A stretch of 64,000 nt of DNA from an uncultured Candidatus Saccharibacteria bacterium (GCA_964631145.1 CAZVXT010000001.1:319361-383360), one strand, 5' to 3'; positions 1,773 to 62,999 are shown, counted from the stretch's first letter. The notes: a model not told the origin generated them from the sequence alone. Numbers and translations are program-made.

Positions 1773-4103
1773 ATGGAGAAAAAAATAATTTCTCTTGATA
1801 TAGCTGGAAAAACTTTGCAGCTAGAAACAGGAAGACTTGCTGGACAAGCTAATGGTGCTGTCTTGGCTCGTCTTGGTGATACTGTAGTTTTGGCAACTGT
1901 GGTGATGAGTAAAACTGCTCGTGATGGTATAGACTTCTTCCCTCTTTTGGTTGATTATGAAGAACGTTTGTATGCAGCAGGAAAAATTAAAGGCAGTCGA
2001 TGGGTTAAGCGCGAAGGTCGTGCTACTGACGAAGCTATTTTAAGTGGTCGAGTAATTGATCGTAGCTTGCGCCCGATGTTTCCTGAAGGTATGCGCAATG
2101 ATGTTCAAGTGGTTGCAACTATTTTGTCTGTTGATGGAGAAAATGATCCAGATATGGTTGCTGTAAATGCAGCTAGTGCGGCTTTGCATATTTCTAATAT
2201 TCCTTTTGATGGTCCAATAGCTGGTGTTCGTGTTGGTAATATAGACGGGCAGTTAGTAATTAATCCAACTAATGAGCAACGCGAAAAATCTAATTTAGAT
2301 TTGATTGTTTGTGGTACTGCCGAGCATATTATTATGGTAGAAGCTGGTGCTGGGTTGGTTGCTGAAGAAGAGATTGTAAAAGCAATAGAATTTGCTCAAG
2401 GCTACTTAAAGCAATTATGTGGTTTGCAAGAAGATTTTCGTAAAGAGGTTGGTGTAGAAAAAACTACTCCAATCATTAAAGAGATTAATCCTCAAGTATT
2501 AGACCAGGTCAAAGCTTTTTTGACAGATGAAAAAATCGAAGCCGCTATTTATGTTAGTAGTAAAGAACAACGCGATCAAAATGTCAGAGATTTAACTGCC
2601 GAATGTTTGGATCTTGTAAATCAAGCATTGTCTTCGGAAGATTTGGATATTAATATTGCCAAAGAAGTTAATACTGCTATTGATAAGATTTTAAAGAAGT
2701 ACCAACAAAAGCAAATTTTAGAAAAAGACAGACGTGTTGATGGTCGAGCTATGAACCAAACCCGTCAAATTAGTTGTGAAGTTGGAGTTCTACCTCGTAC
2801 TCATGGCTCTGCCCTCTTTACACGCGGTGAAACGCAAGTTTTAACTGTTGTAACTTTAGGAAGCAAAGGCGATGAGCAATTGCTAGATGGTGTAGAAGAT
2901 CCAGTTGAAGGTCGCGGCAAGAGATATATTCACCATTATAATATGGCTGGCTTTAGTGTTGGAGAAGTTTCTCCAATTCGCGGACCCGGTCGTCGAGAAA
3001 TCGGACATGGCGCACTCGCGGAGCGTGCTGTTGAAGTAGTGTTGCCAGCACAAGAAGACTTCCCTTACACAATGCGTTTGGTTTCTGAAACTATGTCTTC
3101 AAATGGTTCTACATCTATGGCTTCTACATGTGGTTCTACTTTAGCTCTTATGGATGCCGGTGTTCCTATTAAAGAAGTTATTGGTGGAGTTGCTATGGGT
3201 CTTGTTATGGATGAATCTAATCCAAACAACTTTAAAGTCTTAACTGACATTGCTGGAATTGAAGATTTTAACGGACATATGGACTTTAAAGTTACTGGTA
3301 ATGAAAGCGGTGTTACTGCACTTCAGTTAGACATTAAAGTAAAAGGTTTAACTGCACAAATTTTGGCACAAGCTTTGTCTGAAGCAAAGCCAGCAAGACT
3401 TCATATTTTGAGTAAAATGAAAGAAGCTTTGTCCGAGCCGCGCCCAGACCTTTCCCCTTACGCACCTCGTATAACTAGCTTTATGATTAAGCCTGATCAG
3501 ATTCGTGAGGTTATCGGAAGTGGTGGTAAAACAATTAATGGAATTATTGCTCAGTGTCCGGGGGTTAAGATTGATATAGAAGACGATGGTTTGGTGATGG
3601 TTGCATCAACAGATGCAGAAAGTGCTACCCGCGCAGTTCAAATGATTAAAGATATTGTCCGTGAAGTTATGCCAGGGGAAATTTTTGAAGGTAAAGTAGT
3701 TCGTCTTATGGACTTCGGAGCTTTCGTAGAAATTTTGCCAGGTAAAGATGGAATGGTTCATGTTTCTCAGCTTGCAAATTACAGAGTTGGTAAACCGGAA
3801 GATGTTGTTAAAGTAGGAGATACTTTGAAGGTTCAGGTTTCTGAAATAGACGAGCAGGGTAGAATTAACTTAACTCATAAGCCTTTTGCTGCTCCGGCTC
3901 CGGAAGGTAGCCAGGATGACAGTAGAGGAGATCGTGGCTCCAGAGGTGGTTATGACAGACATGATAGAAAGCCAAGGTTTGGTGGTGGTAGAGGACGTGG
4001 CGGCGATCATCATGGCGGTAGTTCTAGGCATCATAATGACAACGAAAGATCACATGGACACGCTACTCCATCAAAACCTTCTCGCCCACCAGAAGAATTT
4101 TAG
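1773..4103 (+). CDS. pnp: polynucleotide phosphorylase (PNPase) with an unusual RGG/His-rich C-terminal tail
   Basis: The sequence is PNPase-like throughout, with two RNase PH-like halves and KH/S1 regions. I prefer the ATG at 1773 (MEKKIISLD, preceded by AAGGAAAG) to the TTG at 1734. The last 70 aa are low-complexity (GDRGSRGGYDRHDRKPRFGGGRGRGGDHHGG...). Confidence 0.92.
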   Translation: MEKKIISLDIAGKTLQLETGRLAGQANGAVLARLGDTVVLATVVMSKTARDGIDFFPLLVDYEERLYAAGKIKGSRWVKREGRATDEAILSGRVIDRSLRPMFPEGMRNDVQVVATILSVDGENDPDMVAVNAASAALHISNIPFDGPIAGVRVGNIDGQLVINPTNEQREKSNLDLIVCGTAEHIIMVEAGAGLVAEEEIVKAIEFAQGYLKQLCGLQEDFRKEVGVEKTTPIIKEINPQVLDQVKAFLTDEKIEAAIYVSSKEQRDQNVRDLTAECLDLVNQALSSEDLDINIAKEVNTAIDKILKKYQQKQILEKDRRVDGRAMNQTRQISCEVGVLPRTHGSALFTRGETQVLTVVTLGSKGDEQLLDGVEDPVEGRGKRYIHHYNMAGFSVGEVSPIRGPGRREIGHGALAERAVEVVLPAQEDFPYTMRLVSETMSSNGSTSMASTCGSTLALMDAGVPIKEVIGGVAMGLVMDESNPNNFKVLTDIAGIEDFNGHMDFKVTGNESGVTALQLDIKVKGLTAQILAQALSEAKPARLHILSKMKEALSEPRPDLSPYAPRITSFMIKPDQIREVIGSGGKTINGIIAQCPGVKIDIEDDGLVMVASTDAESATRAVQMIKDIVREVMPGEIFEGKVVRLMDFGAFVEILPGKDGMVHVSQLANYRVGKPEDVVKVGDTLKVQVSEIDEQGRINLTHKPFAAPAPEGSQDDSRGDRGSRGGYDRHDRKPRFGGGRGRGGDHHGGSSRHHNDNERSHGHATPSKPSRPPEEF

Positions 4104-4130
4104 TAATTTACTCTCCCCTTTTATGATCAA

Positions 4131-4160
4131 AAAACCAAGCAAGTATTGCTTGGTTTTTTG
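4131..4160 (+). terminator. intrinsic terminator after pnp
   Basis: 10-bp stem AACCAAGCAA/TTGCTTGGTT followed by T6. Confidence 0.65.
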
Positions 4161-4236
4161 TTGTGTGTTTTTTATATAAGGTTGAAAATTATATGATAAA
4201 TTGCTATACTGTTGTCATCAAATTAAGGAGGTTTGT

Positions 4237-4566
4237 ATGGAAACAACTAAGTTACAAAAAAGTGAACCGGTATTATCTGAAGAATTAATTAAGCCTATTG
4301 AACGGCGGATGGTGACTGCAACAGAACTTGCAGTGGTAAATGAAATTGTTGAAACAATTCAAAATGAATTGCGGTCTAAAAATTTAGACGTTACTAAAGA
4401 GTTTCATTTTTATATTTCAAAAACTCAAAGCAAAGTTTTAACCTATAATGGATTATTTTTGATTAAGCGAGCTTGTATGATTAATTTTTGGGAATGTAGT
4501 TATGAATCTGGAGATGGGTATGGTGGTGGTAAGCCTGGATTTTGGATAGGTCATAGTAACGTTTAA
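4237..4566 (+). CDS. hypothetical small protein
   Basis: ATG at 4237 preceded by AAGGAGG. The track ORF begins at an upstream TTG. Confidence 0.55.
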   Translation: METTKLQKSEPVLSEELIKPIERRMVTATELAVVNEIVETIQNELRSKNLDVTKEFHFYISKTQSKVLTYNGLFLIKRACMINFWECSYESGDGYGGGKPGFWIGHSNV

Positions 4567-4579
4567 ATAAGGAGTTGGT

Positions 4580-4882
4580 ATGGTAAAAGAATTTGTTCAA
4601 ATAAATTACACCAATTCTACCGTTGATTGTTCTGTATCTAAAGAAGAAGTTGATTTTATAAATTTAATCATTCATAAAATTAATAACTTGGTAGAATGCC
4701 AACATTTTATCAATGGTAGGACCAAAGCCTTTCGTTTAACTGCATTGGAAGATAAATTAATGACCAAAGTTGTTAATTGGAATATTAATAAAATATGTTT
4801 AGATAAAGGCATTAGTTATATGCATATTCCTTTTGATGATATTGATGGTGTCGAAGCTAAGGTTGTGATTAGAAAAATATAA
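4580..4882 (+). CDS. hypothetical small protein
   Basis: 100 aa. AAGGAG lies 7 nt upstream. Confidence 0.55.
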   Translation: MVKEFVQINYTNSTVDCSVSKEEVDFINLIIHKINNLVECQHFINGRTKAFRLTALEDKLMTKVVNWNINKICLDKGISYMHIPFDDIDGVEAKVVIRKI

Positions 4883-4886
4883 ATTT

Positions 4887-4914
4887 TAGACAAGTATTTA
4901 CTTGTCTTTTTTTG
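4887..4914 (+). terminator. intrinsic terminator
   Basis: Stem AGACAAGTA/TACTTGTCT followed by T7. Confidence 0.6.
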
Positions 4915-4972
4915 TGGTTGATTTGTCCTTAAGTTTATGATAATTTGATAAGAAATTATATTGGAGGAATAT

Positions 4973-5968
4973 ATGGATATAGAGTTATTACATTATTTAC
5001 AAAAATCTTTTAAATTGCCTGACTTACAAATTGTTAATGAAATTAATTCAGGTATGCAAACTAAAAATTGGATTGTTATAAGTAATGGGTTTAAATTTGT
5101 GCTCAAACAACATCGAACAAATAATATTAGTGAGATTGAAAAAGTTAATCAAGCGGTTAGGATGTTTGAGTGTAAGCTTCCTGTGGTCTCCGCATTAGTT
5201 ATTGAAGAGCAATCTGTGGTTGAGTTTGAAGACAATGCTTACTCGTTATATTTATATAAAGATGGTAAAATCTTTAATCGAGGAAGTGTTTCAATATGTG
5301 CTTTGGTAAATAGTGCTAAATTTTTAGCGCAGCTACATTTTTACGGACAGAAAAAATATATAGATATAGACTTACCTTGTGCTAATACAGATTTACGTAA
5401 ATATTTTTCTGAAGATCTTAACCATTTAAAGCAAATTGTTGAAACAAAACGAGCGCAAGCTTTATTAGACTCGCAAGCTTGGAGCTTAATAGAACTGCAA
5501 GAGCAATTAGCATTAAATTATCAAATTCCTAGTTATTACCATCTCCAGCCTAATCATTTCACTCATGGTGATTTTCATGATCAAAATTTGATATTCGATG
5601 ATTACGGCAATATTAATGCGGTAATTGATTTTGAAGAAGCAAAATATGGGTTTCGTTTAGTAGAAGTTGTCCGCAGTATGTTAATCATGTGCTTAGGAGG
5701 TGGCTATAATAAGCTAAATTTAATGCAAGCTGTAACTTATTTGCGGACTTATTATTCTTGTTATCAATTTAGTAGGGAAGAGCTAATAGAAGCCATTGAC
5801 TTTGTTTATACCAAGCGTTTATATTCTTTATGGGCGTTAAAACAAATATATTTGCACAATAACCGTAAAGTAGAGAAGTTGCTACCAGAAACTTATACAC
5901 ATTTGATAAGCTTGTCTCAAAACTTACCTCTTTATAAAAAGATTTTTATCAAAGAAGTTTTTGGGTAA
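4973..5968 (+). CDS. APH/choline-kinase-like phosphotransferase family protein
   Basis: The HGDFHDQNLIF (Brenner HGDxxxxN) and IDFEEAKYG motifs place it in the aminoglycoside-phosphotransferase / homoserine-kinase-II fold. The ATG at 4973 follows GGAGG. Confidence 0.7.
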   Translation: MDIELLHYLQKSFKLPDLQIVNEINSGMQTKNWIVISNGFKFVLKQHRTNNISEIEKVNQAVRMFECKLPVVSALVIEEQSVVEFEDNAYSLYLYKDGKIFNRGSVSICALVNSAKFLAQLHFYGQKKYIDIDLPCANTDLRKYFSEDLNHLKQIVETKRAQALLDSQAWSLIELQEQLALNYQIPSYYHLQPNHFTHGDFHDQNLIFDDYGNINAVIDFEEAKYGFRLVEVVRSMLIMCLGGGYNKLNLMQAVTYLRTYYSCYQFSREELIEAIDFVYTKRLYSLWALKQIYLHNNRKVEKLLPETYTHLISLSQNLPLYKKIFIKEVFG

Positions 5969-5977
5969 TTGTTTAAA

Positions 5978-6010
5978 TAAACGTAGGAAAACCTACGTTT
6001 TTTGTTTTTT
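5978..6010 (+). terminator. intrinsic terminator
   Basis: Stem AAACGTAGG/CCTACGTTT followed by T-run. Confidence 0.6.
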
Positions 6011-6036
6011 AGTGTGTTTTATTGACATTTTATCTA

Positions 6037-6065
6037 TTGACAAAAATGTTAAAATATGTTAAAAT
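6037..6065 (+). promoter_or_regulatory. sigma70-like promoter (TTGACA-17-TAAAAT)
   Basis: TTGACA at 6037-6042, 17-nt spacer, TAAAAT at 6060-6065. A second TTGACA sits at 6022-6027. Confidence 0.55.
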
Positions 6066-6071
6066 ATTGAT

Positions 6072-6436
6072 GTTCAAGATTAATTAGCTTTAATCTTATT
6101 GAACACTAAAAAATAAAACTAAATTTAGAGGAGAGACATAAATGTCAAATTTCAGAGCCAGAAAATGGGCCCGTATGTCGGGTATAGCAAAAACTTTAAT
6201 CAACAACCCAGAAATCTTTTTCGGGCAAACAACAACCACCCCGCTTTTTGAAACCAAAGAACCTGTTCTTTTGGGTTCCAAAATCAGTTTAACGCAAACA
6301 TTTCCCATTTCGGTTGAAAATAAAAAACCCGAAGGTCGCGTCATTAAAGTTTCTGCCGAACAAATGGCGGCGGTTAAAAACCGCCAAACCGGCGGCTCTC
6401 GAAGTCGCTACAAAAAATTCTGACGAAAGTCAGCTA
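6072..6436 (+). other. candidate structured leader or ncRNA; alternatively the transcript of a 93-aa ORF at 6142..6423
   Basis: It lies between a strong promoter and an intrinsic terminator. G+C and GC-ending codons are well above the flanks. ORFs are open on both strands (6142..6423 + and 6096..6344 -), as is typical of GC-rich structured RNA. AGAGGAG lies upstream of the ATG at 6142. I could not match RNase P, tmRNA, SRP or 6S signatures by eye. Confidence 0.4.
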
Positions 6437-6468
6437 CAACGCTTGAGATAATCTTGCGTTGTTTTTTT
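6437..6468 (+). terminator. intrinsic terminator 28 nt upstream of the tgt ATG (possible attenuator)
   Basis: CAACGC-13 nt-GCGTTG followed by T7. Confidence 0.6.
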
Positions 6469-6486
6469 ATGCAAAAAATTTTATAA

Positions 6487-7659
<1,173 letters not shown>

Positions 7660-7715
7660 ACTTTATTCGGCTTTTATTTATGGGTGTTAAAATAGTAGTA
7701 AATAATGATTAAAAT

Positions 7716-8006
7716 ATGAATTTACAAAACGAATTTTCTAAAATTCATCAACGTTTTGATGAGTTGGATCAAAAATTTATTACAAAAAAAGATGCTCAAG
7801 CATTTGCTACTAAAGAAGACTTAAAGCACTTTGCAACAAAGAGCGATGTTGAAAAGTTTGCGACTAAAGAAGATCTTGATAATCAGACTCGGGAATTAAA
7901 AGATTATGCTGATGAGCAAACAGAGCATTTGGTGGCTGTAATTTCTGCAACTATTGCTACGCCTTTGCAAAAACATTTTGACGAACATCATTTATATTCT
8001 AAATAA
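7716..8006 (+). CDS. hypothetical small protein with three FATK(E/S)D repeats
   Basis: 96 aa containing FATKEDLKHFATKSDVEKFATKEDL. Confidence 0.5.
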   Translation: MNLQNEFSKIHQRFDELDQKFITKKDAQAFATKEDLKHFATKSDVEKFATKEDLDNQTRELKDYADEQTEHLVAVISATIATPLQKHFDEHHLYSK

Positions 8007-8020
8007 ATTTGGACATAAAA

Positions 8021-8049
8021 AAACGCCTAAAATTTAGGCGTTATTTTTC
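8021..8049. terminator. bidirectional terminator
   Basis: Palindrome AACGCCTAAA-A-TTTAGGCGTT flanked by an A-run and a T-run, between convergent genes. Confidence 0.6.
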
Positions 8050-8923
8050 ATTTACAAGTTTTCCAAAAATCAAACAATTGTGGGGTCAGATAAATTTTCA
8101 TATTATCTGGTAAATCTTGAAAATTAGAAAAATTATTTTCTATTAATTTTGCTATTTGTTGATTGTGAAAATTTCCACCTTTAATAGCCTTGAAGTTGTC
8201 ATCATAAAAATAGCAATAAACTATAGGGCTATTTTGACTAACCATAATGGTTTTGCCAAAACTTGGGAAGTAAGTATGGATCGCTAACATGGGATTTCCA
8301 AATTCGCTAGTTAGCTCAAATGATATAAGTGGTAGAGACTGGTAATTTGAACTTACTACCGAATTTCCATTTTTACTATTTGGATCAATAAACAACTTAC
8401 CTTGATTAGTTTTTCCGATAGGAGAATAGCCATAAGTTTCTAGTTCCCAAATTCCTTTAAAGGTATTATATTCTGAAGATACTTCTCGAAGATTTAAATT
8501 GAATAGAGTAGAAAAGTTTTTTTCAAAATTTGCCAATACATTTTCATTGCACGCTCCGATGGTGATTAGGCATTGATAGACCTGCGGATTATTTTTTGCT
8601 TCTAATAATAAAGCATTTTGATAATAAGGCTCTATTATTAAACCTTCTTGCTGTATTGTTTTTGATAACTGTTTTACTTTATCTTTTTCTTTTACAAAAT
8701 CAATATTGCTGCCAAAAAATCTTAAAATAAAACTTTTTGCCGACCCTTTTGGCAGAGGTGTTACTTCGTTTTTAAAGACTGAAGTTATTCCTAGATTTTG
8801 GGATTTGGTATAGTAAATCCAACGCTTTCCAGAATTGCTGAGAAAAACATTTTGTCCTGCTATATTAGAAGTTGTAGTTAAGAACGCAAAAATCAACAAT
8901 ATAGTTAAATAGAAAATTTTCAT
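8048..8923 (-). CDS. secreted hypothetical protein with an N-terminal signal peptide
   Basis: Start at the MKIFYLTILLIFAFL ATG (complement of 8921-8923), preceded by GGAGG. The hydrophobic N-terminus is signal-like. Confidence 0.6.
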   Translation of the reverse strand: MKIFYLTILLIFAFLTTTSNIAGQNVFLSNSGKRWIYYTKSQNLGITSVFKNEVTPLPKGSAKSFILRFFGSNIDFVKEKDKVKQLSKTIQQEGLIIEPYYQNALLLEAKNNPQVYQCLITIGACNENVLANFEKNFSTLFNLNLREVSSEYNTFKGIWELETYGYSPIGKTNQGKLFIDPNSKNGNSVVSSNYQSLPLISFELTSEFGNPMLAIHTYFPSFGKTIMVSQNSPIVYCYFYDDNFKAIKGGNFHNQQIAKLIENNFSNFQDLPDNMKIYLTPQLFDFWKTCK

Positions 8924-9022
8924 TTTATCCTCCATGATTTTTAATTTGAAGTATAACAATACTAATTTTTGGTGGTTTTGTCAATTTTTGCGTAAAATAT
9001 TTGCAATTGTTATAATTTTATT

Positions 9023-40489: not shown

Positions 40490-41434
40490 TTAACTTTTTT
40501 TAGAAAAACCAGCCGCTTGTAAAGCAGCACCTAAACCGTTAATCGCTGGTCCGGTATATGCTTTGCCATTCAGGGTTTTCCTTTTTCTCGCTACCGAGGC
40601 AGGCTTGCCTGGAGAAGGAAGTGGAACCGACGTAGTGGAAATTTTCTGCTCTACCTTCAAAACTGATTTTGGTTTCGGCTTTGTAGTCTTTGCAGTTTCA
40701 GTTTTTTTGGTTTGGTTACCTTTCAACTTATCAAGTTGTTGTTTGGAGCCTAATGTTTTTACCTTTGTTTTGTTTTCAACTTGTGGTTGAAACAAATAAT
40801 CAAAGGCATTAGTTGCAACGTAGCCGAATCTGTCTAACATAACTTCCTCAAACCATTTAATGGTTTTGGTTGTTGGATTGTTCGACAATATGCGTGTGAC
40901 AAAAATTTCTTCCGGGTCGTCTTCATTCGGTTTTTTATAACAAATGAAGATTTCGGCACCGGAGAACATAGTTACTTTTCTATCCTCATCCAATTTTACA
41001 GGATTTGGAATATATCTATTGTGCGGTGGAATCTTAAAGATTTCGCCTTTTTCACAACTGAATGGTGTAAATTCCTTTAATTTGTTTTGGGGAATTGTCG
41101 TTTCGCCGATGATTTCTAACAATTTATTGTCAGAAACAATTGCCGGAAAAGCAACGATTTTGGTCCGAAGTTCAGACATAAAGACATCCAGACGAACATG
41201 ATCGCCGCGTCTGCCGTTTTGCGGCAAGTTTACAACCTTGACTGTTTCGCCAAAAGTTATTTCAACTTGTCTTTGACCGGGAACTTTGTTAAATTTCAGT
41301 TCCGGCATTTGCGGGTCATTGTTTGGGCGGATCGAGGTTTGCTTGAGACCCATTAAAGTAATGATTAATTCGTCGGTTAATACGAAGCTAGCGTCTGCTT
41401 TTTTGTAAAAACTATTCGGTTTATTGGTATTCAT
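40490..41434 (-). CDS. hypothetical protein with a Lys/Thr-rich disordered C-terminus
   Basis: 314-aa ORF. Confidence 0.55.
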   Translation of the reverse strand: MNTNKPNSFYKKADASFVLTDELIITLMGLKQTSIRPNNDPQMPELKFNKVPGQRQVEITFGETVKVVNLPQNGRRGDHVRLDVFMSELRTKIVAFPAIVSDNKLLEIIGETTIPQNKLKEFTPFSCEKGEIFKIPPHNRYIPNPVKLDEDRKVTMFSGAEIFICYKKPNEDDPEEIFVTRILSNNPTTKTIKWFEEVMLDRFGYVATNAFDYLFQPQVENKTKVKTLGSKQQLDKLKGNQTKKTETAKTTKPKPKSVLKVEQKISTTSVPLPSPGKPASVARKRKTLNGKAYTGPAINGLGAALQAAGFSKKS

Positions 41435-47745: not shown

Positions 47746-48225
47746 TTAATAATTTTTTTGTGGGGGGAGAACTATATCTCCGATTTTTATTATCCCACTT
47801 GTTAATACGTGGGCGGTTAAGCCTCCACAGTCAAAAAATTCTTCAGCAAAATTTACTGGTTTGTTTGATAGCTTACTTGGTCTGGTGCAAGGTTCGCAGT
47901 ATTTGTATCCAAAAAATTTAACATCACCGATAGTAAATTCTTTGTTAATACAACGCATTAATTCTATTCCTTCTATCAATAAATTTCTTCTTGTTTCGTA
48001 AAACCAGAAAGTTTTATTTTTAAAGAAGTGTGCGTTCATTAAGGTTACTTGCCCGTTCCAGGTGCCTGTTTTTTTAGCATTAAGCTTGTTAAAACTACCA
48101 ATCCCTGCTGCATAGCGATCCCCTTGAAGTCCTTTACCTTCCATGCAATAAACTTCCAGTAATGCTTGCATTGGCGCTCCTGCTTTAGGAGCGATGCAAA
48201 TTTGCTTTAACGTTCCTTTAATCAT
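47746..48225 (-). CDS. MOSC domain-containing protein
   Basis: GDRYAAG, QVTLMN, NLLIEGIEL and the Cys-containing C-terminal block (CEPCTRP). Confidence 0.6.
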   Translation of the reverse strand: MIKGTLKQICIAPKAGAPMQALLEVYCMEGKGLQGDRYAAGIGSFNKLNAKKTGTWNGQVTLMNAHFFKNKTFWFYETRRNLLIEGIELMRCINKEFTIGDVKFFGYKYCEPCTRPSKLSNKPVNFAEEFFDCGGLTAHVLTSGIIKIGDIVLPPQKNY

Positions 48226-48553
48226 TATGATCCTCCAAAGTATTGTTATCAGCTTCGGGTTTTTCTAAGACAATAAAGCAGTGTGGGCAATTTTGGATTT
48301 CGTAAACTTTTTTATTGCTTGTTCGAATAGTGATAAATAACCATTTGCTTTTGTAATATATGACCTCTCCAGCAAAAAGTTGCTTATCCGATTCTCCATA
48401 CCAAATGCTAATATTATCATGACTTCTTGCTTTAAAAACTGTGCATTCATGAGTTATAAAATTATTTTCAGAATCTTTTATAATATCCGACGCATCTATA
48501 TCATCTAGCAATTTCATACGAACGTTTTGCATATTTCTATTCTCCTTTTTCAA
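48218..48553 (-). CDS. hypothetical protein
   Basis: 111-aa ORF. Confidence 0.5.
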   Translation of the reverse strand: MKKENRNMQNVRMKLLDDIDASDIIKDSENNFITHECTVFKARSHDNISIWYGESDKQLFAGEVIYYKSKWLFITIRTSNKKVYEIQNCPHCFIVLEKPEADNNTLEDHND

Positions 48554-48562
48554 GATTTATAT

Positions 48563-48919
48563 TTAAACTCGTTGTGTTTCTTTGGATAATACTTTAGTTT
48601 TTACTTTTGTATAAATCCACACATCAGCTTCAAAATCCATTTCATATACTCTATAGCTGTTTTTATCGCTTTGTAATTTCCATTTTGAATTTTCAAAATT
48701 ATGTTTCTTCCACCAGGGTAAACAATTTTCACCATTAACAATTTTATTTAATTGTTTTCTGGCAAAATATTTTGTTGGATATGGACCATGTGTTTTGGAT
48801 GCTATCGGTTTTTTTGTCTCAGCGCCTTTGCATGGTTCATCTAATAAGACATCTACATATTCTTCACGAACGTAATATTCGGTAGTAACTAGAGCTACTG
48901 TGGTAACAATTTTCTGCAT
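48563..48919 (-). CDS. hypothetical protein
   Basis: 118-aa ORF. GGAGG lies upstream. Confidence 0.5.
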   Translation of the reverse strand: MQKIVTTVALVTTEYYVREEYVDVLLDEPCKGAETKKPIASKTHGPYPTKYFARKQLNKIVNGENCLPWWKKHNFENSKWKLQSDKNSYRVYEMDFEADVWIYTKVKTKVLSKETQRV

Positions 48920-49043
48920 AAAACCTCCTTTTTGAATAACTTAATTTATCATCTTTAGCAGCATTAGTCAACGCGGTGTTTACCATGTTTTAAAAAATAT
49001 TTATTATTTAAATAATAAAAAACCAGCTAAATGCTGGTATATT

Positions 49044-49379
49044 TTAGTATAAACTAGAGTTTGGAGAGAAAGGCAGAAAATTAGATTTACCATCCATAAC
49101 ATAAGTAGTTTTAACAATCTCTTTTATATTAATAGATGTTTTAATAATTACGGTATCACCGTCTTGGCTTTGTGATAACATGGTTCCGTTTTTAATTCCG
49201 ATAGTAACAGTAACAGTGTTGTCTGTTCTAGAGACTTCATCTATTTTATAGCAATCAATAGGTTTGTCTTGATCTTTTAAATATATTTTACAAACGATTT
49301 CATGGTTACCTTGCTTGTTGGTTTTGTTTATATCTACAGTTGGTGTATTTGTTTGAATTTCTTCTAGTATATTTAACAT
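49044..49379 (-). CDS. hypothetical protein
   Basis: Start at MLNILEE (complement of 49377-49379) after GGAGGATAAT. Confidence 0.5.
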   Translation of the reverse strand: MLNILEEIQTNTPTVDINKTNKQGNHEIVCKIYLKDQDKPIDCYKIDEVSRTDNTVTVTIGIKNGTMLSQSQDGDTVIIKTSINIKEIVKTTYVMDGKSNFLPFSPNSSLY

Positions 49380-49461
49380 ATTATCCTCCTTTAGAAGATA
49401 TAAATTATCATGTATTTGGGTGTTTGTCAAGTGTGACTTTTTTATATTAATTGGTTAATAT

Positions 49462-50070
49462 GTGGTTATGAGCTTACAAGAATTATTAGATTTAACCAAA
49501 AAATTTGGACAAACAGTAGTGGTTTCTGAAAGCGGGGATGTTAAAGCGATTTTGTTATCCCCAGAAAAATACATAGATTTTGCTAAAGATAAAAAGGTAG
49601 AACGAGCTCCTTTAAATAATAATCAAAGTGCTAATTATGATTCCGCATTGGGACAAAAGCAAGGCATGCCTGTTCCTACAGATTTAGAACCCGAAGAGGA
49701 TGTTATTGCAGAACATGAACAACAAGATTTGCCAGTTGGTTTAGATTTTGATATTTCTGATAATGATTTTAATAAAGGTTTGTTTAAGAGTGTTGGTCTA
49801 AATAATGATGAAAATCTCGAAACTTTTAATGTTAATGATTCTAGTGAAATTGAAGAAAATATAGTAGACAGAGCCTCTTCCGCAGAACCGCCAAAACCAT
49901 TAAGTAGTTTATTAACTAAAAGAGCTGAAAGTTTATTTATGGACAAACCTTTTGGCAGGGTAAATACTCCGGAGTTTGATATGCGCAGCGAAGTAGTAGA
50001 TCCAAATTTTGGTAAGCCAGCTAATGTAGATGATGATGAAGAAATCCAAACCAGCTTTGAGAATATTTAA
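49462..50070 (+). CDS. protein with a Phd/YefM-like N-terminal domain and a long acidic disordered tail
   Basis: LQELLDLTKKFGQTVVVSESGDVKAILLSPEKY resembles the YefM antitoxin fold. It is followed by a D/E-rich tail of about 150 aa. Confidence 0.45.
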   Translation: MVMSLQELLDLTKKFGQTVVVSESGDVKAILLSPEKYIDFAKDKKVERAPLNNNQSANYDSALGQKQGMPVPTDLEPEEDVIAEHEQQDLPVGLDFDISDNDFNKGLFKSVGLNNDENLETFNVNDSSEIEENIVDRASSAEPPKPLSSLLTKRAESLFMDKPFGRVNTPEFDMRSEVVDPNFGKPANVDDDEEIQTSFENI

Positions 50071-50148
50071 TATATGATTATAAAAAGATTCTAGACATCC
50101 TAGGATCTTTTGGTTATAATGATCTATAAAATTACTTTAGGAGGTAGT

Positions 50149-50589
50149 ATGGAAAAAATCAAAGAAGTAATTAATTCTGTTTCTAATTTTTTTGAAAAAG
50201 GGGATAGTTACCCAGAAATGTTCTTGGCACTTAAAGAGTTTTTGGGTTTAGACGTTATTCATCTCAACATACTTGCAGAGACAGCTTCATATTTACTGTT
50301 GCAAGATTTTTTTGGAGAAAAATGCGTGCTGTTTACTTATAACAGGCTTTCTAATGCTCCAGAAAAATATCAAATGTTTTGTTTTGATGCTAGTGGTAGG
50401 CTACGGCAATTTTTTAGTCAAAATAATAAAAAAATTTTTAGCAAAAATGATTTTATAGGATGGCTAGGTGTTGAAATGCTTTCTGCGGCACAAGATTTTG
50501 TAAAAGGGGTTATAAAAAACTCCCAGCTACTAGACTCTAATGCAGAATTTGCTTTAGAAATTATTGATAATGTTTCTGATAGTTATTAA
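50149..50589 (+). CDS. hypothetical protein
   Basis: ATG at 50149 after AGGAGG. The track ORF begins at an upstream ATG at 50110. Confidence 0.5.
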   Translation: MEKIKEVINSVSNFFEKGDSYPEMFLALKEFLGLDVIHLNILAETASYLLLQDFFGEKCVLFTYNRLSNAPEKYQMFCFDASGRLRQFFSQNNKKIFSKNDFIGWLGVEMLSAAQDFVKGVIKNSQLLDSNAEFALEIIDNVSDSY

Positions 50590-50595
50590 ACAAAA

Positions 50596-50624
50596 AGCAC
50601 TAGAAATTTCTAGTGCTGTTTTTA
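50596..50624 (+). terminator. intrinsic terminator
   Basis: Palindrome AGCACTAGAAATTTCTAGTGCT followed by T5. Confidence 0.6.
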
Positions 50625-50641
50625 TTAAAAACTTAATTTAT

Positions 50642-51145
50642 CTAAATTGTTGCGCCCATCTTTTGGAGCTTGCTTTCTAAAACCAAAATTTCTAGTGCTG
50701 TTTTGGATGGTGTCTTATCTTTTAAATTTTCTTTGCTTCTTTTATATTTTAGCTGCTTTGTGTATTTTGCAATTACATTTATGAAATCATCTATCCATAA
50801 TTTTGAATCCACTAGGTATTTAAAATTTATATCTTCGTCTTTTATATAGAATAAGCCGTTCCAGTTTACTTCAAGAATATCGGTAAGTTTTGTATCTGAT
50901 CCTAAACGAGTTGATATGGTTAATGTGCAATTACCAAACATGCTTTGTCCTTCATCAAAATTAAAATTAAACCCGGCTATTGCAGCTTCGGTTTTTTTGT
51001 GAATATGGCACGAGTGTATTTGGTTATATGTTTGCACACCGAGCTTTTCTTTTAATAAAAAAGCAAAATTCATAATTTGCTCATTTTGCTTGGTTTGCAA
51101 TTTTAGTGTTCTTTTTAAGTTTGAAATATGGGTATTATCTTTCAT
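50642..51145 (-). CDS. hypothetical protein
   Basis: 167 aa. GGAGG lies upstream. Confidence 0.5.
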   Translation of the reverse strand: MKDNTHISNLKRTLKLQTKQNEQIMNFAFLLKEKLGVQTYNQIHSCHIHKKTEAAIAGFNFNFDEGQSMFGNCTLTISTRLGSDTKLTDILEVNWNGLFYIKDEDINFKYLVDSKLWIDDFINVIAKYTKQLKYKRSKENLKDKTPSKTALEILVLESKLQKMGATI

Positions 51146-51195
51146 AATTTACCTCCATAAAATTTTCCTTAGTATATGTTGAGGACAAGGAAAAG

Positions 51196-51495
51196 TCAAA
51201 CAAAAAAACAGTTGGCAGAAACCAACTGTTGTTTGGGAATGAATTGAATGTGTTTATTTGCTAAGTCAAAAATTTGCTGTTTTAAACTGTAGCAAAGATA
51301 GATTACTTTTGGAGTATTAATTGGCTTGTATGAATGTATATTATCTTTAAAAATTGCTGTAGCGATAACGTAATCAGTTACAAACTGCAAAGCATCGCTA
51401 TAATTTTTATGAAAGCTTAAATATTTTACTCCTTGATGATCAATCCAAGTTTGGGCATAAACTGCAACTTTGAATATATTCACATCGTTCTTCAT
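51196..51495 (-). CDS. hypothetical protein
   Basis: Start at MKNDVN (complement of 51493-51495) after AGGAGG. The track ORF extends further upstream. Confidence 0.5.
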   Translation of the reverse strand: MKNDVNIFKVAVYAQTWIDHQGVKYLSFHKNYSDALQFVTDYVIATAIFKDNIHSYKPINTPKVIYLCYSLKQQIFDLANKHIQFIPKQQLVSANCFFV

Positions 51496-51610
51496 AACAT
51501 TACCTCCTTTTTGGCAAGTTACTTCGAGTATACTCTTTTTATAAAAATTTGCAAATAAATTTGTTATAAAATAAAAGGCGGAAGATATATTCTTCCGCAT
51601 TGGTTTAACG

Positions 51611-51982
51611 TTATTTGGAAATTTTTGTGATTGTTAGGTGATCTAGAATATCGCCATCATTGCAATTTGATTGCTCTGTATAAAGCAATGTAATTTTGTC
51701 ATTAACAACCAATCCAAATGTTTCTATTTTTTTTGCATTGCATGGAGCTGGTGAAGTGATTATTGTTCTATTTCCGAAATTATCTTCGAGTATGGTTCTA
51801 ACAATCCATCCCCATTGATTAGTCTGTATATGCTTGACTGTATATACTTTTTGATCAAGTTCTAAAGCTTCTATCTTATGGTCATTATTTGAGCAATTAT
51901 AGTAGCAGGAACACATTATTCCGAAAAATATAATGCCAATAATTATTAGGCTAATTACCGTTTTTGTAATTTTTTCTTTCAT
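51611..51982 (-). CDS. hypothetical lipoprotein-like protein
   Basis: N-terminal hydrophobic segment followed by Cys residues. AGGAGG lies upstream. Confidence 0.5.
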   Translation of the reverse strand: MKEKITKTVISLIIIGIIFFGIMCSCYYNCSNNDHKIEALELDQKVYTVKHIQTNQWGWIVRTILEDNFGNRTIITSPAPCNAKKIETFGLVVNDKITLLYTEQSNCNDGDILDHLTITKISK

Positions 51983-52293: not shown

Positions 52294-53481
52294 ATGGCAG
52301 AAGCATTTGATCGCTCAAAGCCTCACCTTAACGTTGGTACGATTGGCCACGTTGACCACGGTAAGACCACTTTAACTGCGGCTATTACCAATGTACTTGC
52401 TAAGTCTGGTAAAGCAAAAGCAAGAGCTTACGACCAGATCGATAACGCTCCGGAAGAAAAAGCTCGTGGTATTACTATTAATACTTCTCACCAGGAATAC
52501 GAAAGTGACAAGCGTCACTACGCTCACGTAGACTGTCCTGGTCACGCTGACTATATCAAAAACATGATCACTGGTGCAGCTCAAATGGATGGTGCTATCT
52601 TGGTTGTATCTGCAACTGATGGTCCTATGCCACAAACTCGTGAACACATTTTGCTTTCTAAGCAAGTAGGTGTACCTTACATTGTTGTTTATATGAACAA
52701 GTGTGATATGGTACAAGATCCAGAACTTTTGGATTTAGTAGAAGAAGAAATTCGTGATCTTCTTACTAAGTACGAATTCCCTGGAAAAGACACTCCAATC
52801 ATCCGCGGTTCTGCCCTAAAAGCATTAGAAGGTGATACTTCTGAAATGGGTGAACCATCAATCTTAAAGCTTGTTGAAGCTTTGGATAACTTCATCCCAG
52901 AACCAGCTCGCGAAACTGATAAACCATTCTTAATGCCAATTGAAGATATCTTCACTATTGAAGGTCGTGGTACTGTAGTAACTGGTCGTATCGAACGCGG
53001 TGAAATCAAGATTAACGATGAAATTGAAATCGTTGGTATCAAAGCAACTACAAAAACTGTAGTAACTGGTATCGAAATGTTCAACAAACAACTTGATAAA
53101 GGTATGGCTGGTGACAACGCTGGATTATTGCTTCGTGGTGTAAAGAAAGAAGAAGTAGAACGCGGTCAAGTTTTGGCTAAACCAGGTTCTATTACTCCTC
53201 ACACCGAATTTGAAGCTGAAGTTTATATCTTAACCAAAGAAGAAGGCGGACGTCACACTCCATTCTTCAAGGGTTATAAGCCTCAATTCTACGTTCGTAC
53301 AACTGACGTAACCGGTGAAGTTATCTTGCCTGAAGGTCAAGAAATGGTTATGCCTGGTGATACTGTAACTATCAACGTTAAGTTGATTACCCCAATTGCC
53401 TTGGAAGAAAAAGGTAAATTCGCTATCCGCGAAGGTGGTCGTACAGTAGGTGCTGGTGTTGTAACAAAAATTGTTAAATAA
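52294..53481 (+). CDS. tuf: elongation factor Tu
   Basis: [23 protein letters not shown] and NKCD. Full length is 395 aa. Confidence 0.97.
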
Positions 53482-53574: not shown

Positions 53575-53595
53575 TGCTTGTTAAATGGAGGTTTT

Positions 53596-54114
53596 ATGAA
53601 TAAAGGTCAAAGTATTTCGTCTGAGCTACTGCGAAAATCTGCCGCAGATCAAAATTTAAATAATGAAAACACTGTAAAGTTAAAGCCGAACCCTAATGCT
53701 AATTTTATTTCAGAATTTGTTAGTTATAAGGTTGGCACCGCAGAAAGGTATCAACAAGATCAAATATTATATGATTGCAAATATGGTTCGATAAAGTATA
53801 AAAATGCGAGTTTAAAATTAGCTGCTGCACGAGAAAAATCTTTACAAGCAGAAATAAACATGCGGTTCTTAGTATCAAATCAAAAACCAGATTTGTTAAT
53901 TGATTTTTTGGACTTAATTAAAAGTCTAGAAGAGTGTATTGCTTTTAAAAATCGCGGGCTTGTAAAACTATCAAAATTTAAAGAAGGGAGTGCAAGTTGG
54001 AAGCTTCAATATAAAGAAAACGAAGAATACGACTTATTAGCAGTCAATAAAGAAGCAGAAATTATGCGGTTATTAGGGTATATTTCTAAAGATGAAGATA
54101 AAATTGATTTATAA
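53596..54114 (+). CDS. hypothetical protein
   Basis: ATG at 53596 after GGAGG. Confidence 0.5.
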   Translation: MNKGQSISSELLRKSAADQNLNNENTVKLKPNPNANFISEFVSYKVGTAERYQQDQILYDCKYGSIKYKNASLKLAAAREKSLQAEINMRFLVSNQKPDLLIDFLDLIKSLEECIAFKNRGLVKLSKFKEGSASWKLQYKENEEYDLLAVNKEAEIMRLLGYISKDEDKIDL

Positions 54115-54160
54115 TATAAAAACCTCAGATAGAATAGATCTGAGGTTTATTTATTTTTTA
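54115..54160. terminator. bidirectional terminator
   Basis: Stem AACCTCAGAT/ATCTGAGGTT with an A-run and a T-run. Confidence 0.6.
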
Positions 54161-54167
54161 TGCTTGT

Positions 54168-54617
54168 TTAATAAATTAATCGAACATTAACGTTTATGGA
54201 TAGGGAAGACTGTTTATTATTTATGGTTTTAAAATCAACAATTGATTCTTTGTATTGTTTGGATAAATTATTCTGTATAGAAAAACTAAATTTTCTACCA
54301 GAAGAATTTTTTAAGTTCATATCAAAACCGACTAATAAATTACTAGAATTATTATAGAAGTTGTTATTGAAGTAGTTTTGATTGGCGCCAAAGTTGTTCC
54401 AATAAGAGTTGCCTGTGTAAGAATTATTAGTAATACCAAAATTGCTATATATACTTGGATCATTATACATAATATTCTTCTTCTTTTGAATTGTGGCTTG
54501 GATAGTAATTTTATATTTAGATTCTGTAGATTCGTTGATATTTGAAAAACTTTCTTGCCCATAATGCGCTAAGGACAAAAAGCATAAACTAATAATATAG
54601 AAAACAATTTTATACAT
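54168..54617 (-). CDS. secreted Asn/Tyr-rich hypothetical protein
   Basis: Signal peptide. GGAGG lies upstream. Confidence 0.5.
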   Translation of the reverse strand: MYKIVFYIISLCFLSLAHYGQESFSNINESTESKYKITIQATIQKKKNIMYNDPSIYSNFGITNNSYTGNSYWNNFGANQNYFNNNFYNNSSNLLVGFDMNLKNSSGRKFSFSIQNNLSKQYKESIVDFKTINNKQSSLSINVNVRLIY

Positions 54618-54751
54618 ACTGCCTCCAAAGTGTTTTTATTTTAGTATAAATGTGTGAGGTTAAAGATATTTACAAATTTTTATCAAGTCCATTATAGATT
54701 GACTAATACTAAATTTTAAACTATTGTAAGCCTAAAAATAGGAGGCAAATT

Positions 54752-55009
54752 ATGCTGATTTTATGGTTAAAGAATAAATGGTTGCATTCTAAATTATACA
54801 TTTGGCTTTTACATGTTAAATGTATGGTGTTGCATTTTTATCTCCATGATGTAAATTATCATTACAGACCAGTTGGTAAGTATGTAATCTTGGCTCATAC
54901 TAAATATAAGATAATTTATTGTAAAAAGTGCCATCATTTTTACACAAGAGAGAGATTGGTTTATGATCACTTTGATCCAATGGATTATTATTATTATGAT
55001 AGGTTCTAA
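54752..55009 (+). CDS. hypothetical small Trp/Tyr/His-rich protein
   Basis: AGGAGG lies 7 nt upstream. 85 aa with CKKCHH and a YYYYDRF C-terminus. Confidence 0.45.
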   Translation: MLILWLKNKWLHSKLYIWLLHVKCMVLHFYLHDVNYHYRPVGKYVILAHTKYKIIYCKKCHHFYTRERLVYDHFDPMDYYYYDRF

Positions 55010-55116
55010 ATTAAATAAGTCCTGATTTATTCAGGCTTTTTATTTATCTATGCTTGGTTTGACAAAATACATAAATTTAAACATAATACTATGAAAATCT
55101 AATTTAGGAGGAAATT

Positions 55117-55845
55117 ATGATAACTGAACACTTAAAGGATTATAATAGTCAAGAAAAATTTTTACGAACTCAGATTTTTTATGCAGAAAATTTACGGGAA
55201 AAATCTCAAGATTATAGCAATGCTATCACTTCTTTAAAAGAAGTCATTGATCAATCGGTAGAATTTCCAAAAATAATGTTAGATGCTTATGCCCAATTAA
55301 TTTTGACTTGGCGACACAAGTATGAGCGTCAAGGTAAAAATATTGAGGATTTAAACAAAATGGGGTTCTGCATTGATGATGCTTTGTATTTTATAGATTT
55401 ACCTGATCAGCAAAAGCACGTGTTATTTTACCGGTTGGGAGATTGGCATTTTCTAAGAAATAACTATGAAAATTCTCTGAATAATTATCAAAAGGCATTT
55501 ACTTTTGCTATTAAAGAGCAAATGTTGTTTAGCTCTTCATCCATTGCCACTGTTGGGGAGTATGAAAAAAGCATCGCCAAAGCCCATTATATGCTTAAGC
55601 AATATCAATCAGCGTTTGAAAATATTGTAAACTCAATAGATGATATTAAAGCTGGACACTTTGAGAAATCAGAAAAATGGCGGCAAAATATCATGCTTTC
55701 ATCTAGTTATGGCGTGCTTGCAAAAATTCAATTTTTCAGATGGAGACCAAGCTGTATATACTATGCTGGTAAAGCATTTTTAATGTCTGTTTTCCTGGCA
55801 AAAAATGGTTATGGTTTGCGTCTAAAACAAGCTTTAAAAACCTAA
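55117..55845 (+). CDS. hypothetical protein, possibly a helical-repeat (TPR-like) protein
   Basis: AGGAGG lies upstream. 242 aa. Confidence 0.5.
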   Translation: MITEHLKDYNSQEKFLRTQIFYAENLREKSQDYSNAITSLKEVIDQSVEFPKIMLDAYAQLILTWRHKYERQGKNIEDLNKMGFCIDDALYFIDLPDQQKHVLFYRLGDWHFLRNNYENSLNNYQKAFTFAIKEQMLFSSSSIATVGEYEKSIAKAHYMLKQYQSAFENIVNSIDDIKAGHFEKSEKWRQNIMLSSSYGVLAKIQFFRWRPSCIYYAGKAFLMSVFLAKNGYGLRLKQALKT

Positions 55846-56081: not shown

Positions 56082-56405
56082 ATGGAAAAAGTCGTTAACA
56101 AGCCAAAAATCAGGATTAAAATTAGAGCTTATGATCATAAGTTAATTGATCTAAGTGCTAAACAAATCGTAGATACAGCAAAGCGCACTGGGGCAAATAT
56201 TTTAGGACCAGTACCTCTTCCAACAGAGAAGCGTAAATATACTGTACTTCGTTCGACTTTTGTACATAAAGATAGCCGTGAACAATTCGAAATGCGCACT
56301 CATAAGCGCATGATCGATATTTTGGAACCAACTCCAAAAACTATTGATTCTCTTACCAATCTCAGCTTACCTGCGGGTGTAGATATTGAGATTAAAATGA
56401 GTTAA
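56082..56405 (+). CDS. rpsJ: 30S ribosomal protein S10
   Basis: [39 protein letters not shown], the S10 signature. Confidence 0.95.
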
Positions 56406-56512
56406 TAGATTTAGTAGATATGTTCTGAGAGCTTCTAGCCTAAATAGCTACAGCATTCAGATAACTATTTACCATCATGTTTAAGCCCATCTTTTTGGTG
56501 TACTTTTATATG

Positions 56513-56540
56513 CTGGGAAATAGTCCCAGTTTTTTATTTT
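56513..56540 (+). terminator. terminator-like hairpin between rpsJ and rplC (possible attenuator)
   Basis: Stem CTGGGA-AATAG-TCCCAG followed by T6, inside a 198-nt spacer. Confidence 0.4.
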
Positions 56541-56603
56541 TATATCAGTAATTAAAGTTCTGAAGTTTGAATTTTTCCCAAACCTCTCAGTTCCAGATAA
56601 TAT

Positions 56604-57272
56604 ATGAAATTTATTGCAGGAAAAAAACTAAATATGACTCAGTTCTTTGCGGACAATGGTCAAGTTATTCCAGTAACTGTAATCAAAGCTCCTCCTGTAG
56701 TAGTTACTCAGGTAAAAACTACAGAAACTAAAGATGGTTACAATGCTGTACAAATCGGCGTTAGCAGTCAAGTTAAAGGAAGTAAAAAGTCTAACAAGTC
56801 AAAGACTGGTCATAGCAAAAACTTAGGACAATTTGGATCTTTTCAAGAATTTCGTGTAGAAAATCCTGGAGATTATCAAGTCGGTCAAAAGTTGGACGTT
56901 TCAATATTTGAAGTAGGCGACATGGTCTCTGTGGTAGGTACTATGAAAGGACGTGGTTTTGCCGGAGCGATTAAGAGACATGGTTTTGCTGGTTTTCCAG
57001 CTAGTCATGGACACGATCGTCCTCGTAGCGTTGGTTCTATTGGACAAAGATATCCTCAACACACTCGTAAAGGTTTAAGAATGTCTGGTCATATGGGAAC
57101 AAACTTAGTAACTGTAAAAAACTTACAAATTGTGGATGTGGATAGCTCTAAAGGATTAATTATGGTTAAAGGTGCTGTTCCTGGAACTAATGGCGGTATG
57201 GTAAGAATTTTATCAAACGGCGTTAACAAGCCTTTATTTGTAGAAGTTGTAGAAGCTAAGAAGAAGAAATAA
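56604..57272 (+). CDS. rplC: 50S ribosomal protein L3
   Basis: MKFIAGKKLNMTQFF aligns to the L3 N-terminus. Confidence 0.95.
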   Translation: MKFIAGKKLNMTQFFADNGQVIPVTVIKAPPVVVTQVKTTETKDGYNAVQIGVSSQVKGSKKSNKSKTGHSKNLGQFGSFQEFRVENPGDYQVGQKLDVSIFEVGDMVSVVGTMKGRGFAGAIKRHGFAGFPASHGHDRPRSVGSIGQRYPQHTRKGLRMSGHMGTNLVTVKNLQIVDVDSSKGLIMVKGAVPGTNGGMVRILSNGVNKPLFVEVVEAKKKK

Positions 57273-57282
57273 GGAGATTTAA

Positions 57283-57395
57283 TTTTTGACGAATCACTTC
57301 GTTGTTTTCTGAAAAAATTTGGAAGCGTAATAACTGTTACGTTGACAAATTTTTTCAGAAAACACCTTGTGCTTCATTCAAAAATGAAACTCCTA
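57283..57395 (+). repeat. extended-hairpin intergenic repeat, copy A (rplC-rplD spacer)
   Basis: The 17-bp outer stem TTTTCTGAAAAAATTTG/CAAATTTTTTCAGAAAA (57305-57321 and 57346-57362) encloses the inner hairpin CGTAA-TAACTG-TTACG. It shares conserved flanking tails with copies B, C and D. Confidence 0.7.
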
Positions 57396-57447
57396 GGATA
57401 AAAAACAGTTTTGATAACCTACTAAATTGAATTTATTTTTTATATAA

Positions 57448-58089
57448 ATGAAAGTAACTATTTACAATCAGAACGCGGAAAGCGTTGGTGAAATCGAAGT
57501 CAATGACAAGATTTTTGCAGTAAAGCCAAGTATTCACCTTTTAGCAGAAGCGGTTAGAATCCAAGCTTCAAACGCGCGCAAGGGTCTTGCTCATACTAAG
57601 ACTCGCGGTGAGGTTTCTGGTGGTGGTAAAAAGCCATGGAAGCAAAAAGGTACTGGACGTGCTCGTGCTGGTTCTACTCGTAGTCCTATTTGGAGACATG
57701 GTGGTATCACTTTTGGTCCTCGTAGCGACCGTAACTGGAGCTTAAAGATTAATAAAAAAGCTAAAACTAAAGCTTTGTTTATGTCTCTAAGTGATAAAGT
57801 CAAAGATGGCAAATTAATTATCGTTGAAGGTCTAAACTTAGACACTCCAAAGACTAAAGAGTTTGTTAAAGTAATGACTGCTTTCCATGCCAAGCTTAAA
57901 GATTTGGGTAAGAAGCAAATGATGATTCTTCCTAAAAAAGATGAAAGCTTGGTTAGAGCAAGTCGTAACTTACAAGAAGTTAATACAGTATTAGCAACTA
58001 GCTTGAATGTTACAGATGTACTTAAAGCAGATAGCTTAATTGTTACTAAAGAGAGTTTACCTCTTATCGAAAAAACTTATTTAAAGTAA
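57448..58089 (+). CDS. rplD: 50S ribosomal protein L4
   Basis: KTRGEVSGGGKKPWKQKGTGRARAGS. Confidence 0.95.
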   Translation: MKVTIYNQNAESVGEIEVNDKIFAVKPSIHLLAEAVRIQASNARKGLAHTKTRGEVSGGGKKPWKQKGTGRARAGSTRSPIWRHGGITFGPRSDRNWSLKINKKAKTKALFMSLSDKVKDGKLIIVEGLNLDTPKTKEFVKVMTAFHAKLKDLGKKQMMILPKKDESLVRASRNLQEVNTVLATSLNVTDVLKADSLIVTKESLPLIEKTYLK

Positions 58090-58093
58090 AGAA

Positions 58094-58495: not shown

Positions 58496-58505
58496 GAAAA
58501 TTCCA

Positions 58506-59502: not shown

Positions 59503-59515
59503 TATTTGATTAATA

Positions 59516-62995: not shown

Positions 62996-62999
62996 GCAT

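Follow-up and report, generated by a model that had tools for sequence, protein, structure and literature searches.

Results

Organization of the pnp-tgt junction

The window, that is the whole stretch of 64,000 nucleotides analysed here, is AT-rich (33.7% GC), and MAGs labelled Candidatus Doudnabacteria, Saccharibacteria or Patescibacteria hold the closest counterparts of its tgt and pnp genes. The junction between the two genes (4104-6495) is occupied by four ORFs led by a Shine-Dalgarno (SD) site, namely ORFs of 109/121 aa and of 100 aa, an APH-family gene and, as the last one, an ORF of 93 codons. The unit containing this last ORF is compactly arranged (Table 1): an upstream terminator, which belongs to the APH-family gene and makes up the left edge of the unit, is followed by a promoter, a 5' hairpin, an SD, the ATG, the stop codon and a second terminator.

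Table 1. Features of the 93-codon ORF unit and its surroundings (positions refer to the whole window)
Feature	Position	Strand	Characteristics
APH-family gene	4961/4973-5968	+	upstream neighbour of the 93-codon ORF unit
Intrinsic terminator of the APH-family gene	5979-6011	+	9-bp stem and T run; -10.8 kcal/mol, z -3.3
Sigma-70-type promoter TTGACA-17-TAAAAT with extended -10 TG	6037-6065	+	11/12 matches
Stem-loop at predicted transcript 5' end	6071-6105	+	-10.1 kcal/mol, z -4.9; 0/200 shuffles as good
Antisense 82-aa ORF, judged spurious	6096-6344	-	no SD, no listed promoter, no homologue
SD site AGAGGAGAG	6127-6135	+	from sequence; GGAG core 6130-6133, 8 nt upstream of ATG
93-codon ORF, probable coding sequence	6142-6423	+	SD, codon score; TGA at 6421-6423
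Small hairpin CUGACGAAAGUCAG across the TGA stop	6420-6433	+	fold of 6415-6470
Intrinsic terminator ACAACGC..GCGTTGT + T7	6436-6468	+	7-bp G+C-rich stem, U7; -11.5 kcal/mol, z -3.4
tgt promoter TTGTTT-17-TATAAT	6459-6487	+	-10 box at 6482-6487, 8 nt before ATG 6496
tgt (queuine tRNA-ribosyltransferase)	6496-7659	+	Pfam TGT, E 3.7e-136

The individual signals that the first-pass annotation had described on this segment were all found in place: the promoter, the AGAGGAG SD ahead of the plus-strand ORF (6127-6133, with the ATG at 6142) and the clean intrinsic terminator upstream of tgt. The promoter ranks first among the 19 promoter-like sites located by a scan of positions 4000-9000, a total not above chance (23 expected from shuffles). 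The 5' stem-loop begins about 7 nt past the -10 box and likely acts as an mRNA-stabilising hairpin. The terminator starts 12 nt past the ORF stop codon and lies 27 nt upstream of tgt; a consensus scan overlooked it solely because its loop is longer than 8 nt.

The promoter region is rich in duplications. A second TTGACA is situated beside the main promoter (6022-6027), TATTGACA is found at both 6020-6027 and 6035-6042, and positions 6044-6065 are covered by a tandem ATGTTAAAAT repeat (direct repeat family D1). Only one -35/-10 pair with 17-nt spacing exists within 6022-6065. The duplicates could be products of slippage or operator-like repeats. Weak similarity of the promoter region to positions 61320-61352, directly upstream of an ORF at 61346 within the ribosomal-protein cluster of the window, was judged a chance resemblance of AT-rich sequences.

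Base composition

The atypical base composition and GC-ending codons of the segment, observed already in the first reading of the sequence, were borne out by measurement. GC content of the 93-codon ORF (0.43) belongs to the top 3.6% of 282-nt segments, the other segments of such GC richness belonging to conserved genes (pnp and tgt, for example), and C content of its + strand (0.24) to the top 0.2%. At third codon positions, GC content (GC3) reaches 0.41, the mean being 0.26. GC skew of the ORF (-0.14) is more negative, and its synonymous-codon score lower, than those of all 242 gene chunks. The GC-rich patch sets in at about 6125, in the SD/ATG region, and does not reach back to the transcription start; GC content of the 70-nt leader is 16-24%. 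Among the 26 SD-led small ORFs of the window, the 93-codon ORF has the highest GC (0.26-0.36 in the others) and the highest GC3 (at most 0.31 in the others), it is alone in having a negative synonymous-codon score, and its SD core reads GGAGA, not GGAGG. Because GC3 reaches 0.41 and C is commoner than G, the foreign-looking composition suggests recent acquisition from a donor of higher GC content.

Strand and codon biases were observed elsewhere in the window as well. Minus-strand genes at 40490-41434, 47746-48225 and 50642-51145 have C-enriched third positions and a GC skew near zero or weakly positive, which fits a replication strand bias with the + strand as the leading one. The 93-codon ORF lies on the + strand, yet has the skew of a lagging-strand gene. 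At two-fold pyrimidine-ending codons, the share of C is 0.12-0.25 in ordinary genes of the window, about 0.3-0.44 in ORFs of the 56-63 kb cluster (56604-63554) and 0.59 in a 395-aa ORF (52294-53481) that, by its length and position, is probably EF-Tu. This preference for C over T in the 395-aa ORF and the cluster looks like translational selection. The same two-fold bias (0.53) is found in the 93-codon ORF, without the preference for T that the 395-aa ORF and the cluster display at four-fold sites.

Coding capacity of the 93-codon ORF

In its own frame (+0), the ORF attains a codon score of 0.114, the highest of all six frames and above 99.9% of off-frame chunks. Other SD-led small ORFs of the window span a range that includes this value, but it is only at percentile 1.2 of in-frame chunks. 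All 20 Lys, Glu and Gln codons end in A; of the 39 equivalent triplets in the two remaining frames, 30 do. Three-base periodicity is weak (chi2 10.1, p 0.12, percentile 6.6 of real gene chunks), GC content is flat over the codon positions (0.41/0.46/0.40), and a stop-free run of at least 93 codons arises in 10% of dinucleotide shuffles. The stretch from SD to terminator is taken up by the ORF, and the SD is well spaced from the first ATG.

An SD located 4-10 nt upstream is a selective mark in this window, being present before 26 of the 76 ORFs of at least 80 aa, compared with 8 of 240 internal ATGs. This SD-led class includes the other three genes of the same pnp-tgt island; when ten of its members were scanned against Pfam, eight had no match at E <= 0.001. 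A small protein, for which the first-pass annotation had left room, is now the best explanation of the segment.

The predicted product has 93 aa, about 10.5 kDa and a pI of 10.8; it contains 17 Lys and Arg against 6 Glu, and lacks Cys, Asp and His. Its predicted tryptic peptides include TLINNPEIFFGQTTTTPLFETK, ISLTQTFPISVENK and VSAEQMAAVK. AlphaFold2, run on the single sequence, predicts with low confidence two helices (residues 4-21 and 72-82) in an otherwise unstructured, non-compact chain (pLDDT 70, pTM 0.24), and Foldseek found no meaningful counterpart of this model in the PDB.

Among about 15 billion proteins, neither of two search modes, i.e. a word-indexed search of 5.8 billion clusters and an exhaustive phmmer search of 1.84 billion representatives, returned anything other than the product itself. 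The same outcome was obtained with PDB sequences, with tblastn against phages and with scans of viral and metagenome contigs. No match to the ORF was found in Pfam, NCBIfam, PHROGs or PADLOC, nor one to the whole element among plasmids (blastn). The gene has already been called, nameless, in public predictions (NCBI and Logan); a Logan contig with the same locus is identical over 10,282 nt, and the largest contig bearing the ORF measures 654 kb. SRR12712853 is the read set behind the assembly. Strain variants for a dN/dS-type comparison were not found, the ORF being absent next to the nearest tgt (86% identical).

The window contains no convincing paralogues or repeats of the element, and its flanks show no convincing direct or inverted repeats of the kind left by a mobile insertion. 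The 14-nt inverted repeat that links 6187-6200 to 6343-6356 over a long range is close to chance expectation, a rough estimate being 0.3 such repeats.

As the first-pass annotation had reported, long ORFs are open on both strands, one of 93 aa on the plus and one of 82 aa on the minus strand. They do not, on the other hand, amount to the signature of a structured RNA that had been read into them, because the A-rich, T-poor composition of the segment accounts for both: besides the 10% of shuffles mentioned above, an antisense run of this length appears in 17% of codon permutations when the sense codons are given. The antisense ORF has no SD before its ATG, no minus-strand promoter is listed upstream of it, and it matches neither a Pfam, NCBIfam or PHROGs family nor any homologue in the protein search.

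Tests for a structured or regulatory RNA

The segment had originally been flagged as a candidate riboswitch, attenuator or non-coding RNA. At the gathering score, comparison of the whole window with Rfam gave no match except one tRNA. When positions 5900-6600 were searched with E-values up to 10, eight sub-threshold matches to unrelated families appeared, scoring 9-24 bits against cut-offs of 37-376, and no covariance model of preQ1 or any other riboswitch was among them. This check, which had been proposed together with the claim, assigned no family to the segment under either the gathering or the permissive setting. ARAGORN found no tmRNA.

The whole transcript folds with a z-score of -3.8, a signal for which the 5' hairpin and the terminator account. 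For the ORF body alone, the z-score is -2.0; for 40 control chunks taken from genes, the mean is -0.73 (sd 1.4) and 20% reach -2 or less. Excess folding of the ORF body over ordinary genes of the window was not found with these controls. Internal stems of the kind adduced for a structured RNA, such as CCGCCAAACCGGCGG, are present but fold at the level of chance (z -0.19, 71 of 200 shuffles folding as well), and the GGCGG/CCGCC/GGCGG segment about 40 nt upstream of the terminator is at chance (z -0.19). When the whole transcript is folded, the terminator itself stays intact in the MFE as well as in the centroid structure, the local MFE structure holding it has an ensemble frequency of 0.63-0.70, and no structure competing with it (antiterminator) was detected in whole-transcript or local folds.

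We also looked for the element in about 59 fetched relatives whose tgt is 68-86% identical. No trace was left by blastn, tblastn or tblastx; the search for conservation upstream of tgt, again proposed at the outset, ended with the element absent from all fetched relatives. Lack of an Rfam match, of excess folding, of a competing structure and of counterparts in relatives speaks against both a riboswitch or attenuator leader and a structured non-coding RNA. A riboswitch, attenuator or leader role for 6072-6468 is not supported; tgt is provided with a -10 box of its own regardless of the sequence preceding it.

The tgt promoter and start

Both observations made earlier on the start of tgt, absence of an SD and presence of TATAAT 8 nt upstream of the ATG, hold true. 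The -10 box is downstream of the preceding terminator, and the -35 box, assigned by reading the sequence, overlaps the U-tract of this terminator. Exact TATAAT is found 6-9 nt before the tgt ATG in 18 of 54 relatives (0-2 at control offsets), and a -10 match of at least 5/6 in 31 of them (0-6 at control offsets). No SD was found within 60 nt before the tgt ATG either in this window or in any of the 54 relatives. The N-terminus of tgt aligns with the first ATG in the relatives examined.

Because 31 of 54 relatives keep the -10 box at this distance of 6-9 nt and an SD is missing, tgt would be transcribed on its own as a leaderless or near-leaderless message. The conserved position of the box lends comparative support to the leaderless start suggested in the first-pass annotation, and, judging from the aligned sequences, tgt looks like a leaderless or near-leaderless message throughout the clade. 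Leaderless mRNAs are well described in Actinobacteria and Deinococcus-Thermus; in the literature searched, we found no directly relevant description of leaderless messages or translation in Patescibacteria. With bacterial leaderless mRNAs, tgt shares the -10 box 6-9 nt before the start and the missing SD, both kept in relatives. It differs in that the 8 nt between -10 box and ATG, the start being a predicted one, equally allow a leader of 1-3 nt.

Variability of the junction among relatives

Among 47 relatives, pnp and tgt are separated by 3-2410 nt, with a median of 431. In relatives, pnp lies directly or at a variable distance upstream of tgt, and long spacers carry almost entirely unrelated ORFs. 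Counterparts of the four junction ORFs of the window were not found near tgt in any fetched relative. Because the length of the spacer is variable and its ORFs are unrelated between species, the pnp-tgt junction is a hotspot of accessory-gene turnover across Doudnabacteria-like genomes.

The closest relative (L002, tgt 86% identical) carries a different small cassette at the equivalent position, composed of a promoter-like site, AGGAG, a 51-aa ORF and a terminator, then TATAAT, 8 nt and ATG. In another one (L082, tgt 85% identical), the junction harbours a 67-aa ORF, and in L083 it consists of the pnp terminator and the tgt promoter only.

The 51-aa ORF of L002 (247-402) is Cys/Pro-rich and lipoprotein-like (MKKILQTCMFILVLGVALFTAGC...), and it is also locally GC-enriched. 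Judged by reading the sequences, the junction ORFs of relatives (L002-L083) include some of secreted or membrane-bound appearance and others that are small and basic.

Discussion

We consider the region, with a probability of about 0.7, to be an independent single-gene cassette of a Doudnabacteria-like (Patescibacteria/CPR) genome, encoding a small basic protein that is specific to the lineage (ORFan). The 93-aa unit is the last of four accessory genes in the hypervariable pnp-tgt junction. Transcription would start at about position 6071 from the near-consensus extended -10 promoter, and the first 35 nt would form the 5'-terminal hairpin and may thereby stabilise the mRNA. Ribosomes would be recruited by the GGAG SD 8 nt upstream of the ATG, and translation of the 93 codons would yield the protein of about 10.5 kDa and pI 10.8, which is predicted to have two helices and to be disordered in its centre. 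Transcript synthesis would end at the intrinsic terminator 12 nt past the stop codon. The unit is probably strongly expressed. Association of the product with nucleic acids or ribosomes is a matter of speculation. As for tgt, it would be transcribed separately, from its own promoter, into a leaderless or near-leaderless mRNA; the terminator at 6436-6468 probably serves mainly to insulate the tgt promoter, without regulating tgt.

Such a gene behaves as an ordinary monocistronic one and has its nearest likeness in ORFan small genes of Patescibacteria/CPR, a kind frequent in CPR genomes and represented in the window by the SD-led class. Shared traits are a GGAG-type SD 4-10 nt from the ATG, a length of about 80-240 aa, absence of a Pfam or NCBIfam family and location in a variable island between core genes.

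An independent lineage-specific non-coding RNA about 400 nt long, or one of dual function that also encodes the peptide, the ORF being a by-product of A/C-rich, T-poor composition, is an unlikely alternative that nevertheless agrees with several of our results: no coding chunk of the window has a composition and skew like those of the segment, its periodicity is weak (p 0.12), one shuffle in ten has an open run this long, the whole transcript folds with a z-score of -3.8, and protein homologues are absent everywhere searched. The fold signal, however, comes from the 5' hairpin and the terminator, leaving the body within the range of control genes, and Rfam offers no match. The SD is properly spaced from the first ATG, and the ORF spans the transcript from SD to terminator. 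Enrichment in GC starts from the SD/ATG region and not from the transcript 5' end, and G-ending triplets of the Lys/Glu/Gln type are avoided in the ORF frame only; besides, no relative exists at the DNA level in the collections searched, which means that no covariation backs any structure. Slightly less likely again is a species-specific, highly expressed regulatory, structural or dual-function RNA that a reduced CPR genome has acquired; its A/C-rich body would work at the RNA level, with the ORF being incidental or secondary. Among dual-function sRNAs, SgrS/SgrT, RNAIII/hld and SR1/SR1P are known. Our unit resembles them in being short and independent, with a strong promoter, a terminator and a small ORF inside. 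It differs in that the ORF fills nearly all of the transcript past the SD, as in an ordinary mRNA, and in offering no base-pairing target, conserved structure or homologue for testing. We regard it as improbable, too, that the segment is a non-functional or decaying remnant, either a foreign fragment or a recent proto-gene, lying between good signals without selection. The ORF is uninterrupted, and the near-consensus promoter, the 5' hairpin, the SD and the terminator around it are all intact and at correct distances, which is unexpected of decaying sequence in a small genome (longest ORF-bearing contig 654 kb), and there are no flanking repeats as a scar of recent insertion; the ORFan status, foreign composition and weak periodicity of the ORF, together with the fast turnover of the junction between species, speak for such a remnant.

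Least probable by far is a cis-regulatory leader of tgt, conceived as a queuosine-precursor riboswitch or an attenuator acting via the terminator at 6436-6468. What invites this idea is the terminator lying on the same strand 27 nt upstream of tgt, and the GGCGG/CCGCC/GGCGG segment, which could in principle give alternative hairpins. These hairpins fold at chance and do not adjoin the terminator, which is itself kept in both MFE and centroid folds (local MFE ensemble frequency 0.63-0.70), and even at E-values up to 10 no preQ1 or other riboswitch model matches. Moreover, the -10 box of tgt is conserved in position in relatives devoid of the element. For leaderless initiation, an internal AUG without SD is poorly placed for translation; read-through of the terminator would bury the SD-less AUG of tgt internally and would probably be unfavourable for its translation. 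Known preQ1 aptamers have about 35-100 nt and precede genes of queuosine biosynthesis or transport, not a 280-nt ORF. Likeness of our element to preQ1 riboswitches (Rfam preQ1-I, -II and -III) is limited to the queuosine theme and a terminator upstream of a queuosine-pathway gene; the element differs from them in matching no model and in not being conserved, and the downstream tgt has its own promoter.

The locus, in our reading, does not add a new queuosine-sensing riboswitch or attenuator upstream of tgt and is not a candidate RNA regulator. A cassette for a small basic orphan protein, foreign in its composition and equipped with unusually good signals for expression, would instead be an example of the lineage-specific dark matter of CPR. 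For annotators of Patescibacteria genomes, the pnp-tgt junction probably deserves attention as a turnover hotspot in Doudnabacteria-like genomes. It may likewise be useful to them that tgt and several core genes are apparently leaderless-type and that GGAGG sites are placed mostly at hypothetical accessory ORFs.

Canonical SD use, indeed, seems to mark accessory genes in this genome. By start signals, the 76 ORFs of the window divide into 26 with a strong GGAGG-type SD, 10 with a -10 box at leaderless distance and 40 with neither. The SD-led ORFs are mostly small and are found, for example, at 4201-6423, 47746-51982 (minus strand) and 53578-55845. Neither signal precedes the 395-aa ORF at 52294-53481 or the ORFs of the 56-63 kb cluster (56082-63554). 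Leaderless-type starts, such as those at 1734, 9023 and 43680, belong to about 10 ORFs, among them pnp, tgt and two long ORFs, the ones at 9023 and 43680.
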